Source: Bacteroidota bacterium
GTDB taxonomy: Bacteria > Bacteroidota > Bacteroidia > Bacteroidales > VadinHA17
Reading direction: 5' to 3'
Length of the DNA stretch: 64,000 nucleotides
Assembly (NCBI GenBank): GCA_029564935.1
Contig: JAKQPD010000406.1
Coordinates: 152 to 64,151, forward strand
Position numbers and translations under genes: made by a program. The notes under the pieces were generated by a model. It searched no databases. It had not been told where the DNA came from and worked only from the letters and a program-made list of their open reading frames with translations. Shown piece after piece: positions 29 through 8,501 of the stretch. Each line of letters starts with the position of its first letter. Within the stretch, counting starts at the first letter, position 1.

Positions 29-610
29 TTACTGACTTTGATATAAAACTTTATTTGAATACTTTGGAAGAAAGATCGTATCTGGTCTATAATTGATAAT
101 CACTTTATTATCTTCAATAGAAAAATAAATAGCACGTTTTAAAAATAAAAACTTCCCATCTTTAGCAAACAAATTATTACCAATAGAGACACTGTCAACT
201 CCTTTATGTATTTTTAATTTATGATATAAAGATTTTTCAACTTTATCTACAGAAACAAGCTCCTCCAAACCACATTTGATAAAGATTAATTTATCATTGA
301 TTTTGAAATAAGCTATTGGAACTTTTTCATGATTTTCCATTGAATACGAAGGTCCAATCAGATATTCGAATTGATAGGCTCTATTGTATTCCTCTGAATT
401 ATCTGTTATGGATGCAGGTTTCTTTTGAAAACAAGCCAGAATAAAGCTATTAAAATTTGGAAATTGATTTACATAGTCCTTCAAAACTGAATATATACTG
501 TCATTAAATGTAATATTAGCTTCAGTTTTAAATTCAACAATTTTCGATCTATTTCCGCACGAAGCTAAGAATACCACCAAAAGTACCCACGATAGGTTAT
601 TTATTTTCAT
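29..610 (-). CDS. Small lipoprotein; candidate immunity protein for the adjacent Rhs C-terminal toxin
   Basis: 193-aa ORF. The signal peptide ends in a lipobox-like LASC (Cys18). The ORF starts 7 nt after the Rhs stop on the same strand. No catalytic motifs recognised. Confidence 0.55.
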   Translation of the reverse strand: MKINNLSWVLLVVFLASCGNRSKIVEFKTEANITFNDSIYSVLKDYVNQFPNFNSFILACFQKKPASITDNSEEYNRAYQFEYLIGPSYSMENHEKVPIAYFKINDKLIFIKCGLEELVSVDKVEKSLYHKLKIHKGVDSVSIGNNLFAKDGKFLFLKRAIYFSIEDNKVIINYRPDTIFLPKYSNKVLYQSQ

Positions 611-616
611 GGTAAA

Positions 617-1255
617 TCATTTTAATTTTGGAAATTTAGTAGCTAACCAATTTGCGTATCCTTTTGCATTCAGAAACTCATCTTTAGTATTGGGATTATT
701 ATTTATCCAACGATAGGTTTTGATTTTAGGATCATGAAATATTGAACTCACTTTCCCATCCCAGCCAAGTACCGTAACTGGTAGATTCCCCATTGTTTTC
801 GATAGGCCAAGGTCTCCATCCCAATAAAGTGAGGGAGTGGCATCTCTACTTTTATCTTGATGTGTATGAATAAATCCTGTAATTTCAAATTCGTTCTTTT
901 CTTTATCAGAAATTACTCCATTACCTATTGAATAACCATACTCTTGATATTTAGTTTCACCGCTTCCATTAGCATAGTCCGGAAGAACTAAGACACTTTC
1001 ATTATTGAGAGTAAATCCACCAACTTCTTTTTGATCCTTATAATGATCATGAGCTTGGCTCCAAATTCGATTATAGGCTTTTGTTTCATCTGAATAAATT
1101 ATGCTTCCATCTTTTCTAAAATCTTCGATTACCTTTCCTTCTGTATCTTTAAACTGTTTATAAGCAAAAGCATATTTTTGGCCATTTGCAAGTTTTGATT
1201 TTTCATTGATTTTAGGATCATATTGATAAGTCCCATCTTTATCGGTATACCAATC
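617..1255 (-). other. C-terminal toxin module of the Rhs protein (212 aa after the DLFGL boundary); possible JAB/MPN-like metallopeptidase fold
   Basis: Cys-free tail. It contains KEVGGF ... GFIHTHQDKSRDATPSLYWDGD, which resembles the JAMM pattern E...HxH...(T)PS..D with non-canonical spacing. Confidence 0.3.
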
Positions 1256-6900: not shown

Positions 6901-7425
6901 CAGGAAGCTGAAAGAAAAAATGTCAGGACTGTATTCATAATTTGAAATAAATCTGACACCAGATCCATTTGGTATAAGAAATGAATTAGCATTATTTCTG
7001 ACAGATTCATTTGAAATATAACCTGATGGAAGGTTGAAAAAGCCCAACAATCGCCCGGTCCCGGGAGTATTAAATTCATCCGGCTCCCCGTTTACCGTTC
7101 GTGTTATCATTCCTCCTGCAGACAGTTTCCAGCCAAATCCCACATTACTGTATGGATTTATGGCACGTAGGCCTTCACCTCCAATATACTTTAATGAAAT
7201 CGGTATGGTTATTTCATTCGTTTTAATTTCAAAAAGTGGTATTGAAATGTCTGCCTGACCGGTATAAAATGATACAGGCCGGAATACCTCCTGTTTGTAA
7301 CTAAATACTTCCGGTGAGGTAAAATTCTGTGCTTCCGATGTTTTTATACATACAAGCATGATAATTATAAGTAAAAGGAAGCTGGAAATTATATTCACTC
7401 CTGAGTGACCTTTACCTGTTTTCAT
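3967..7425 (-). CDS. Large secreted protein with SpvB/TcB-like N-terminal motif, at least one YD-type repeat and a Cys-rich SprB/Ig-like C-terminus
   Basis: 1152 aa with a signal peptide. FYTGQADISIPLFEIKTNEITIPISLKYIGG...GFGWKLSAGGMITRTVNGEPDE matches the SpvB N-terminal pattern (TG..s.SIPl....P.LsL.Y.....G.GW.L....I.R...G.P). YD-like YYTYDVSGRLFLVRDDDKN. VTVSGGSGDYTFSW is SprB-repeat-like. Confidence 0.7.
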   Translation of the reverse strand: MKTGKGHSGVNIISSFLLLIIIMLVCIKTSEAQNFTSPEVFSYKQEVFRPVSFYTGQADISIPLFEIKTNEITIPISLKYIGGEGLRAINPYSNVGFGWKLSAGGMITRTVNGEPDEFNTPGTGRLLGFFNLPSGYISNESVRNNANSFLIPNGSGVRFISNYEYSPDIFSFSFLSYSGYFVMGYDKNFKIQSQDIVKVEKFDNNLPNLSNNPFYLKLTANDGTKFTFGYTEGSIELAGGTETVPYQCIAWYLTTIEFTNGKRIDFNYKTNISKFIHFKRSQFETQYSTASPVVLENISFNGGKVVINSVNYPHKTGEMSDELFLINKIELRNSADQKVSQVILKHSPKIWNRYYILDSLRIDDKRYSFGYNSAGSLPDVPQAYGSDYWGFYNGQSEMTGSIGPTYRDPYLNQYLTLPQKIPSETNSKLGILTSIIYPTGGSELFEYEANTYSYKGVQTLGGYYHSYSAEPKEAGGLRIAKITFGNQVRKYKYVNSFDPNNPDNASIPSSGIIYKLPAVCCMAAEALNFLSIEGEPPVTYSRVIEFLSDKSYTVYDMNSPLNKPDGQNNQSTNYYSCWASNTAIFDNIYRDILIGALGKNSSCALERGQIKEIKIYDSSNILKRSVLYTYSSNPGRYNQFVASIYMTNTAEQRMAWLAFELGLQYLNNPQLSFSLLHSYCIYTFPVYLEEEKTIDYYGSQSITTTAKYRYNSKRLKSAVVTYDSRGDSLKTIFRYPSDINTGVYASMNIMNMLNYPVEQITIKNNKFTGGTLTTFKANGTSPIFYVPDKKYSLELTSPLTSFTYFNGSSRDSHYGTSPDISYDSYSPTGNLQQMTGRDNTPVSYLWDANGIYPLAQVQGASYSQISSLDRKASTYSSITLWSGLNTLASTALISTYSYKPLTGISSNTNPQGVTTYYTYDVSGRLFLVRDDDKNILTRYRHGYKNYPDNGMGGYSPLNAYLSKPPYVIQCSSSSSVVTVSGGSGDYTFSWYLKNNSGAVVASLINSGSKNFDFICSQTGNYYIQCEITDNLLGKKVTSYTGNFPCCLSACSFNANQGFSSISSIVLNYGTTVSLSFTFCNSIVMQPGVTYLVGFISTGCCPSGTRTFNIDSVMGRSWEVTITPYGYVYWRMICGEEMPEYNCEDSGTLTFNL

Positions 7426-7430
7426 GGCGA

Positions 7431-8501
7431 CTATATTTTTACCACCTTAATGGATTTTAACATCTCATTTACAAATACATTGATTATGTAAATGCCCGGA
7501 GGTAATTTATCCATTTCAATTGTATCTGAATATTTACCTGAATTCTTGCCGACATCTGGAATAATACATCTGACCATTCCGTTTCCGTCAATAATCCTGA
7601 AGGAGATGGTCGCATCCTGAGTGAGTTCATACTCAATTATCAGTTTGGAAGTAACGGGATTAGGTTTCAGCTGGCAGTTGGAGAAGAGCTGATCAATATC
7701 CTTTACTTCATCAATAAAATCCTGTTTTACCCAATTTGTTGTATCATCAAGCAGGTGAGCCTGATCTGCAGGAGGATAGAAGAAGGAGGCTACTTTATGT
7801 TCCATCTCTCTCCTTCCGGTTTTTTTTGTTGCTGTTTTTATGGTTTCGAAGACAGGATAGCGGTTTCCGGAAACATACCATGAATAACTCTCCATTTTCA
7901 TTGTCACACTGTCAATACCTGTCTGGAAGTATTCCCTGAGGCTCTTTACTCTCAGTACATTTTTAAAAGTTAATCCCAGCGGAGTGTATAGTGTTCCTGT
8001 GGCATCTGCTGAAACAGTTGTTATTCCGGATACATTAAGCGCAGTCATATGACAGTATTCCCCTCTGCCAGAAAAATCACCACAGATAATATCACCATAT
8101 CGTAAGGGAAACTTCAATCTGATCTCAGGAGGATCATATTTCATAATAGTTGTGCTGTTTTCATAACCTGTATGAATAAGGGAATCTCCGGATATCAGAT
8201 AACTGTAAACAGTTCCGTGCTCGATGCCATTTATCAGGAGCGGATCGGATGATCCTGTCAGGTAATGCAGATAATAATGATCATTTACAGGATTCACAGA
8301 ACGAAAATCCCATATAATATTCGTTCCGGAGATTCCAGGATCAATGTAATCAACCTGTTGCTTGATAAGTGTGTCACCAGGTCGGGGGAGATTGTTAATT
8401 TTCAATATTGTGGTTAAGGACTTTTCCTGAGCATTCAGAAAAGGAGGAAAGTCCAGAATAATCACAATGAAAAAAAAACTAAGAAAGAATGATTTAAACA
8501 T
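7431..8501 (-). CDS. Secreted protein with T9SS type-A C-terminal sorting domain
   Basis: 356 aa with a signal peptide. The C-terminus KPNPVTSKLIIEY...ISFRIIDGNGMV...LPPGIYIINVFVNEMLKSIKVVKI fits the Por/T9SS CTD pattern. Confidence 0.8.
   Translation of the reverse strand: MFKSFFLSFFFIVIILDFPPFLNAQEKSLTTILKINNLPRPGDTLIKQQVDYIDPGISGTNIIWDFRSVNPVNDHYYLHYLTGSSDPLLINGIEHGTVYSYLISGDSLIHTGYENSTTIMKYDPPEIRLKFPLRYGDIICGDFSGRGEYCHMTALNVSGITTVSADATGTLYTPLGLTFKNVLRVKSLREYFQTGIDSVTMKMESYSWYVSGNRYPVFETIKTATKKTGRREMEHKVASFFYPPADQAHLLDDTTNWVKQDFIDEVKDIDQLFSNCQLKPNPVTSKLIIEYELTQDATISFRIIDGNGMVRCIIPDVGKNSGKYSDTIEMDKLPPGIYIINVFVNEMLKSIKVVKI

Follow-up and report, generated by a model that had tools for sequence, protein, structure and literature searches.

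We asked whether a four-gene cassette of a Bacteroidota bacterium (Bacteroidales, VadinHA17; contig JAKQPD010000406.1) encodes a two-part toxin shell of the Tc (ABC) toxin type with no TcA at its side. The cassette lies at one end of the window, by which we mean the whole 64,000-nucleotide (nt) stretch of DNA that was analysed. Tc cocoons have been described from insect and human pathogens in Proteobacteria and Firmicutes, where they belong to an injector with three components, and their TcB subunit carries a six-bladed β-propeller (TcdB_toxin_midN/midC) that closes the shell and binds TcA. From the gene content, fold similarity, gene linkage and gene fusions observed here, we favour, at a probability of about 0.65, the reading that the products of the cassette leave the cytoplasm through Sec and enclose a toxin in a shell of two subunits, on the plan of the TcB-TcC cocoon, with an immunity gene downstream, for competition between bacteria. 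The open reading frame (ORF) calls of the cassette are as follows, and we refer to the 1152- and 1112-amino acid (aa) proteins as B and C.

7431-8501, minus strand: accessory gene, 356 aa
3967-7425, minus strand: B-like gene, 1152 aa
617-3955, minus strand: C-like Rhs gene, 1112 aa
29-610, minus strand: lipoprotein gene, 193 aa

The four genes are separated by 5, 11 and 6 nt, in line with the 5-11 nt given in an earlier note on this DNA. That note had also described a type IX secretion system (T9SS) sorting domain of type A on the 356-aa protein, a full Rhs protein with a core-end motif and a variable toxin, a small lipoprotein, and Sec signal peptides without a T9SS C-terminal domain (CTD) on the two large proteins. 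All of these features were recovered: the sorting domain passes both cut-offs, C carries DUF6443 and Rhs_assc_core ahead of a variable tail past residue ~900, the lipoprotein has an L-A-S-C lipobox, and signal peptides are visible by eye on both large proteins.

B and C are near-obligate neighbours across Bacteroidota, to an extent that exceeds chance. A genome scan with the narrower B alignment (A2) returned 35 genome loci from Bacteroidales, Chitinophagaceae, Flavobacteriales, Cytophagia-type taxa and one Rhodothermales metagenome-assembled genome. A same-strand DUF6443/Rhs-core gene follows B in every one of them that has at least ~0.5 kb of downstream sequence, either immediately or past one to three intervening genes. 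The reverse search started from the Rhs protein and yielded 80 metagenome loci, 62 of them informative; a B gene is present in 59 of the 62, directly upstream in 52, fused in 3, cut by the contig end in 2 and downstream in 2. The same layout was found from three single Rhs homologues. In all, over 100 independent loci show B and C paired. Small exported proteins of 155-200 aa with a glutathione-peroxidase or thioredoxin fold are encoded between the B and Rhs genes at some loci (L026 13838-14347, L004 3731-4333, also L009, L013, L022, L029 and L034), frequently in Chitinophagaceae, and may aid folding of the cysteine-rich B tail.

At least seven single ORFs or proteins are natural fusions of B and C (L016, L019, L060, L074, L078, P0349 and P0380). 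In L060, L074 and L078, only 2-8 residues separate the last B strand from the conserved 'QNY' with which mature C begins, the B tail and the C signal peptide being exactly removed, and P0380 keeps a lectin-like domain between the two halves. DUF6443 comes after the last B strand in the fusions. Their layout suggests that the end of the B shell would lie next to the N-terminus of C. For Tc toxins, the passage of PMC11435725 that cites Busby 2013 likewise has the TcB C-terminus adjoining the TcC N-terminus. Linkage and fusions, together with the fold matches described below, support the Bacteroidota BC-like pair that the earlier note had proposed.

B was divided into the following regions from its sequence, its homologues and a structural model.

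7330-7425, minus strand: signal peptide, aa 1-32 (...TSEA/QNF), read from the sequence by eye and from the model
6301-7287, minus strand: divergent SpvB-type N-terminal shell region, aa ~47-375, from homologue P0011 and the family profile
5410-6300, minus strand: middle region, aa ~376-672, modelled as long hairpins and a mixed α/β insert at the position of the TcB β-propeller
4591-5409, minus strand: C-terminal YD/Rhs shell strands, aa ~673-945, from RHS_repeat and modelled β-hairpins
3970-4554, minus strand: cysteine-rich tail, aa 958-1152, probably two β-sandwich (immunoglobulin (Ig)-like) domains in the model

A strong SpvB-type motif had been claimed for the start of B. Searched against Pfam and NCBIfam, the window protein gave no SpvB match even at E 0.1 and no TcdB-mid match. 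Its homologue P0011 (52% identical) exceeds the Pfam SpvB cut-off (27.1 bits vs 22; residues 64-302, profile positions 4-212 of 287), and 4 of the 43 family members match Pfam SpvB. The family profile aligned weakly and colinearly with YenB 142-231 in the PDB and gave marginal matches to YenB and Rhs proteins (E 0.015-0.09); a PDB search with the B sequence retrieved chance antibody matches only. We then turned to structure. The AlphaFold2 model of B, built on 43 homologues, has a predicted local distance difference test (pLDDT) score of 87.6 and a predicted template modelling (pTM) score of 0.77. Its top Foldseek matches in the PDB are the TcB chains YenB, TcdB2 and TcdB1 (E 1e-15 to 1e-19, query TM-score (TMq) 0.33-0.39), compared with TMq 0.10-0.17 for type VI secretion system (T6SS) Rhs proteins and cocoons and for teneurins. 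The SpvB-type start of B is predicted through transitive homology and fold, not from the window sequence alone, and the earlier claim stands in that form. Both the Rhs-shell fold of B and its co-occurrence with Rhs genes, on which the earlier note had staked its proposal, are present. Among the hidden Markov models that it named, those for the Rhs core (TIGR03696), DUF6443 and the sorting domain (TIGR04183) found matches in the cassette, and SpvB (PF03534) and TcdB_toxin_midN/midC found none in B.

The model gives B an N-terminal helix (residues 13-29) followed by a disordered stretch, and Q33 is nearly invariant across the family. Signal-peptide-like N-termini, all ending in A/S-Q, are seen by eye on the 356-, 1152- and 1112-aa proteins. 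At the other end of the shell, the strands close with a conserved pattern, ...YxYD..GRL...RD.D.NI...Y.Y. The YD-like repeat and the Cys-rich, Ig-like tail that had been described earlier were both found, with weak profile support: RHS_repeat matches residues 908-930 at E 0.004 (and 21 of the 43 family members), and Ig_7 matches the tail at E 0.029. No propeller family, whether TcdB_toxin_midN/midC, FG-GAP or another, was detected among the 43 members at E<=0.01. In the secondary structure of the model, the segment between residues 487 and 680 has ~9 strands and 4 helices, unlike a 6-7-bladed propeller, and the middle region as a whole (376-672) does not look like one either.

The tail (958-1152) is modelled as all-β at pLDDT ~90 and contains 11 cysteines. 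In homologues its place is taken by DUF5977, BACON, ricin-type lectin, PKD, PA14, GLEYA or CBM96 domains, or by ~17 Ig-like repeats. Because such different domains replace it, the tail looks like an exchangeable binding module. Two B-like proteins have very long tails: one (L045 1-7359) has ~17 tandem Ig-like repeats over 2452 aa, and one of 3561 aa (P0383) combines PA14, GLEYA, Ig_7 and CBM96 modules; these tails suggest a stalk-like adhesin. The B family as a whole is large and belongs to Bacteroidota, with members of ~950-1400 aa labelled 'hypothetical' or 'YD/RHS repeat protein'. Searched against sequences that represent clusters at 50% identity, B residues 40-480 match 13,728 clusters at E<=1e-3 and 8,007 at E<=1e-10.

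C and the lipoprotein downstream of it carry the remaining features of the predicted shell, toxin and immunity protein.

Within 617-3955, minus strand: signal peptide at the N-terminus of C, recognised by eye
3491-3859, minus strand: DUF6443 (PF20041), aa 33-155, Pfam E 1e-33
1256-1465, minus strand: Rhs-associated core, aa 831-900, predicted toxin-releasing aspartyl autoprotease (TIGR03696)
620-1255, minus strand: polymorphic C-terminal toxin, aa ~901-1112 (~210 residues), variable after the core
29-610, minus strand: predicted cognate immunity lipoprotein, from its position directly after the toxin and its lipobox (LAS-C)

The Rhs core scores 52 bits with TIGR03696, against a cut-off of 32.5, and core residues D797, H798, R803, D855, R859 and D872 are invariant in 55 homologues. 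The AlphaFold2 model of C has pLDDT above 90 over most of residues 21-870 and below 50 in the toxin tip, and DUF6443 is modelled as the first β-hairpins of the shell (pLDDT 83-94). By Foldseek, the model matches TcC chains alone with a target TM-score (TMt) of 0.66-0.67 at a root-mean-square deviation (rmsd) of 5.1-6.1 Å, TcdB2-TccC3 fusions with TMq 0.50-0.52 over ~1000 columns, and mosquito SGS1 with TMq 0.51. Scores against the closed T6SS Rhs cocoons (TM 0.12-0.24, rmsd ~30 Å) and against teneurins (TM 0.2-0.28) are low. A profile containing the Rhs core ranks the PDB in the same way, with TcC and SGS proteins at E 1e-8 to 1e-5 and the T6SS effector Tse5 at E 1.3. With its core autoprotease residues and a variable tail of ~210 residues, C corresponds, in its model, to a TcC half-shell. 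The model aligns over a longer stretch with the TcB-TcC fusion, which suggests that the first ~200 residues of C, DUF6443 among them, are the counterpart of the C-terminal part of TcB; the split between B and C would then fall earlier than in classical Tc toxins.

Over 1,800 homologues have roughly the first ~80% of C in common and then end in differing tips with JAB, metallopeptidase, nuclease or M23 domains. This conserved body followed by divergent toxin families identifies C as a polymorphic toxin. The tip of C itself belongs to a small family of 23 related clusters. Neither its own sequence nor a profile of 21 sequences matches anything in Pfam or the PDB; such PDB matches as the profile gives stem only from Rhs-core residues in some homologues. 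In the tip alignment (A4), E79, H132-x-H134, P-S and D150 are conserved, giving the pattern E...HTHQ...PS...D. Tox-JAB-2 has been described by the pattern 'E, H[ST]H, S, D' (PMC3482391), which the tip resembles in its residues alone. Compared by BLASTP with homologues annotated Toxin-JAB1, the tip matched in the core-end motif only.

The 193-aa lipoprotein belongs to no Pfam or NCBIfam family, and no relative of it was found in the PDB or in the loci examined. In most related loci (L004-L039), the N-terminus encoded by the ORF after the Rhs gene is hydrophobic or resembles a signal peptide or lipobox, and nearly all C homologues have signal-peptide-like N-termini by eye. These putative immunity ORFs are of the envelope type although some tips of the family are nucleases, unlike the cytoplasmic immunity proteins of nucleases delivered by T6SS or contact-dependent inhibition (CDI). 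Relatives also carry Rhs-core/toxin fragments with small ORFs downstream. Judged from sequence, the cassette family has the features of Rhs-class polymorphic toxins: a conserved body, a variable tip, a predicted downstream immunity gene and spare cassettes. Because tips and immunity genes vary between strains, and because relatives hold extra toxin/immunity cassettes, the role of the system is most likely competition between bacteria and not insect killing.

We next considered the 356-aa protein, which the earlier note had proposed as an export or delivery partner in place of TcA.

Within 7431-8501, minus strand: Sec signal peptide, aa ~1-23 (...LNA/QEK), by eye
Within 7431-8501, minus strand: N-domain of uncharacterised fold, aa ~25-275, with homologues by iterative search
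Within 7431-8501, minus strand: type-A T9SS sorting domain, aa 280-356 (Por_Secre_tail and TIGR04183)

The sorting domain scores 29.7 bits with Por_Secre_tail (cut-off 27) and 27.6 bits with TIGR04183 (cut-off 23), so that among the three larger proteins only this one is a predicted T9SS type-A cargo. The protein has no sequence match in the PDB. An iterative search with its N-domain detected homologues in 33 of the 122 related loci; they mostly lie 5-300 nt from the B gene, and 32 of the 33 carry the sorting domain, the remaining one being a truncated ORF. This distribution marks the family as a predicted dedicated accessory of one, mainly Bacteroidales, lineage. Other lineages have unrelated sorted proteins at the accessory position (SdrD_B-type, M43 peptidase, propeller-like). 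The linkage supports the proposed partnership; the different partners elsewhere do not, and a replacement of TcA is not established. A T9SS role for the cassette is plausible as a hypothesis from gene neighbourhood, and a similar argument for T9SS export has been made from the neighbourhoods of TANFOR toxins (PMC7073777).

A stronger version of this idea is that the T9SS-sorted protein replaces both the propeller and TcA. In the periplasm this protein would serve as cap or docking partner of the B-C shell, carry the folded, loaded shell of ~230 kDa piggy-back through the T9SS and display it on the surface, where the B tail would select the target. We consider this version quite doubtful. If it held, T9SS would be a delivery route for encapsulated antibacterial toxins, and an origin of the Tc cocoon as a weapon between bacteria would be suggested.

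Proteins of other kinds were also seen beside B. A ~440-540-aa family lies just upstream of B in mostly Chitinophagaceae-type loci (L009, L011, L013, L020, L022, L026-L029 and L034); its members have a signal peptide and a long coiled-coil region, and their C-terminal segment is barrel-like and ends in ...FRVGYNF. They match nothing in Pfam and may be an outer-membrane anchor or channel. Upstream proteins of ~310-510 aa in L020, L023, L024, L031 and L037 have C-termini of the form ...NGHLPxxPSA...ELTLY..., then a coiled coil; these resemble phage tail-fibre ends and have no Pfam match. Human-gut loci (L072 (922-3319), L100, L102, L111, L117 and L120) share a conserved module before B-C that has no T9SS-sorted protein and consists of a small Cys-rich protein, a Lin1244_N protein and an HU-HIG DNA-binding protein, joined in L072, L100 and L102 by an Amidase_2 protein. 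By its peptidoglycan amidase activity, this protein might ease the passage of a large complex through the cell wall.

Taken as a mechanism, the favoured two-subunit device would work as follows. In B, a divergent SpvB-type N-terminal shell would be followed by a middle insert and YD strands, with the Ig-like tail on the outside; C would comprise DUF6443 hairpins, YD strands and the Rhs core. Each would pass the inner membrane via Sec, and in the periplasm the last strand of B would pair with the first strand of mature C to form a single continuous Rhs shell. The Rhs-core aspartyl protease would then sever the ~210-residue toxin, which would be retained inside the shell, while the lipoprotein would neutralise toxin in the envelope of the producer. 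The variable glycan-binding or Ig-like tail of B would serve surface attachment or target recognition, and the 356-aa accessory could, in its own lineage, connect the complex with T9SS export or with the cell surface. Periplasmic assembly, autoproteolysis, the export route and entry into target cells are the steps that we infer.

Several results weigh against this device. The exit of a toxin from the shell and its entry into a target cell without TcA lack an explanation, as does the route across the outer membrane, and neither B nor C has a type-A or type-B T9SS sorting domain at E<=0.1. No β-propeller or other closing or gating element is apparent at the B end in the model, where a very degenerate remnant is possible. 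The window protein itself stays below the SpvB threshold, the TM-scores between B and TcB are modest, and the B and C models are of each chain folded alone. The signal peptides were judged by eye, from a hydrophobic N-terminus followed by A/S-Q, which is a weak basis. The CTD accessory is absent from most loci, and in 3 of the 62 informative metagenome loci the DUF6443-Rhs gene has no B gene inside 8 kb, so that C may sometimes act alone or with a distant B. Finally, the metatranscriptome signal over B, C and the lipoprotein gene (sparse contigs from four runs, 2-4x) is weak, could be DNA carry-over and does not prove co-transcription.

Some of these points would be expected if C were a self-contained cocoon, like T6SS Rhs effectors and teneurins, with DUF6443 as its plug and B as a separate co-regulated adhesin, chaperone or outer-membrane translocation helper. 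DUF6443 does sit where T6SS Rhs proteins have their plug, the B tails (Ig, lectin, PA14 and CBM domains) are adhesin-like, and both the single-chain models and the three loci without a nearby B gene would agree with it. The C model, however, fits open TcC half-shells well and closed Rhs cocoons poorly, DUF6443 is modelled as ordinary shell hairpins, and B has an Rhs/TcB-type shell fold of its own. Near-linkerless fusions from a B strand into C are expected of one continuous sheet and not of two machines, and we consider a self-contained C unlikely. It is far less probable still that C is a cargo effector of a T6SS encoded outside the window. Many Rhs toxins are T6SS effectors, T6SS loci occur in Bacteroidales (PMC4714493), and the DNA past the lipoprotein end of the cassette lies outside the window; yet Pfam and NCBIfam show no PAAR, VgrG or DUF4150-type match or other T6SS marker on C, its fold matches T6SS cocoons poorly, and N-terminal Sec signal peptides would route the proteins to the periplasm, away from T6SS loading. 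Flanking T6SS genes, which the earlier note had singled out as evidence that would count against it, are absent from the ~55 kb of window on the one available side and from the annotated related loci. This explanation is barely credible.

That the cassette is a classical eukaryote-directed Tc toxin with its TcA encoded elsewhere in the genome is very improbable, although B and C do have TcB-like and TcC-like folds and orphan TcC genes far from TcA are known in Photorhabdus (PMC7861908). The propeller, which is the TcA-binding gate (PMC11435725), was not found in B. Tc toxins have no signal peptides, are assembled in the cytoplasm and are freed by lysis (PMC10847048), whereas both cassette subunits have predicted Sec signal peptides. 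The immunity-type lipoprotein and the extra toxin/immunity cassettes point to bacterial targets, and the habitat is sludge and anaerobic digesters. Neither the window nor the annotated related loci contain a TcA-like gene, as the earlier note had it for this locus. A 2021 census, which screened without SpvB, assigns 96.4% of Tc loci to Proteobacteria and 3.2% to Firmicutes (PMC7861908).

The device that we favour shares with TcB-TcC pairs (YenB/YenC2, TcdB2/TccC3; PDB 4igl, 4o9x, 6h6e) a B protein with an SpvB start and an Rhs end and a C protein with Rhs repeats, core and variable toxin. TcB-TcC proteins are the best structural matches of both window proteins, the B and C termini behave as neighbours in fusions of the cassette family, and the ~210-residue tip fits the ~200-400 residues of Tc toxin tips. 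It differs in that no propeller gate was found and the window has no TcA, in its signal peptides, in its probably earlier split (~200 residues of C align with the C-terminal part of TcB), in the external Ig/lectin tail of B, in an immunity gene and polymorphic tips that indicate bacterial targets, and in a host phylum that is Bacteroidota, not Proteobacteria or Firmicutes. We do not file the locus as a Tc toxin because the propeller, TcA and cytoplasmic assembly features fail; the cassette is a new form of the Rhs/Tc encapsulation principle.

Other toxin classes resemble the cassette in part. A survey of polymorphic toxins from 2012 set up a 'TcdB/TcaC' class, in which the toxin polypeptide itself bears a signal peptide, SpvB and an integrin-like propeller and whose phyla include Bacteroidetes, and assigned some Bacteroidetes-only Rhs toxin domains (e.g. 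Tox-JAB-1) to the type II secretion system ('T2SS') (PMC3482391). The cassette has the signal peptide, SpvB part, Rhs repeats, polymorphic C-terminal toxin and immunity gene of that export class; unlike it, no propeller was detected, and the SpvB part is usually separate from the DUF6443-Rhs toxin, as it is in the window. T6SS Rhs effectors (RhsA, Tse5, RhsP, Rhs1-Tre23) have an Rhs shell, an autoproteolytically released toxin and a downstream immunity gene, as is predicted for the cassette. They are single closed cocoons with an N-terminal plug and PAAR/VgrG linkage, loaded from the cytoplasm, in contrast to the half-shell geometry, signal peptides and lack of T6SS markers of the cassette. 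TANFOR toxins (PMC7073777) are likewise Bacteroidetes-restricted, Sec-exported and polymorphic, have no sorting domain of their own and have T9SS-sorted neighbours, but each is one large protein whose N-terminal domain is unrelated, and they lack both an Rhs shell and an SpvB-like partner. A YD/Rhs shell, an enclosed C-terminal toxin-like domain and external binding domains are found in teneurins, in bacterial teneurin-like proteins and in SGS1; all of these are single polypeptides with a plug and a β-propeller, unlike the cassette. A teneurin-like single-chain shell was ruled out by the low TM-scores of both models. Our literature search found no paper on DUF6443 or on a split SpvB-like/DUF6443-Rhs gene pair.

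The cassette end of the window (1-8501) has a G+C content of 33-38%, lowest at the toxin/immunity end, while most of the remaining window has 39-46%, a contrast in keeping with acquisition by horizontal transfer or with cassettes that are often exchanged. An identical cassette copy is present in ~20 metagenomes from activated sludge, wastewater and anaerobic digesters. Outside the cassette the window holds housekeeping genes, among them hydrogenase and maturation genes, complex-I-like subunits, PurL and transketolase, with no T9SS core gene in the 64 kb and none seen in the annotated related loci. An energy-metabolism block at 14327-36351 contains an [FeFe]-hydrogenase with NuoE/F-like subunits, HypD/E/F maturation genes, a Rex-like regulator and an Ech/Mbh-type membrane hydrogenase or complex-I-like module; by this block the host is an anaerobe, in agreement with the digester habitat. 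Rfam and tRNA scans of the whole window gave no match.

Two further features of the window stand apart from the cassette. At 8960-9016, a 10-nt unit CTTTAGGCAC occurs in ~six copies upstream of a plus-strand ORF (9087-9332, 81 aa) that has a terminator-like hairpin downstream. Metatranscriptome contigs from four runs cover ~9069-9407 at 3-20x, well over the depth on the Rhs cassette, and the region 8960-9407 has no Rfam family match. The minus-strand gene at 58637-62368 encodes 1243 aa, in which a Laminin_G_3 (concanavalin-like) domain is the sole family match; it is positionally unrelated to the cassette.

A probable two-part shell like that of the Tc cocoon is now seen in another phylum, with no injector, with Sec signal peptides and with the hallmarks of strain-against-strain conflict. 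The B-C pair is very widespread in Bacteroidota, with many of the related loci coming from human-gut metagenomes, and is apparently unstudied. Should B and C form the proposed shell, it would follow that much of the Rhs toxin repertoire of Bacteroidota relies on a partner protein so far unrecognised, that a big folded shell crosses the outer membrane by a route still to be found, and that toxin is released into a target without TcA. These consequences are testable in culturable relatives.

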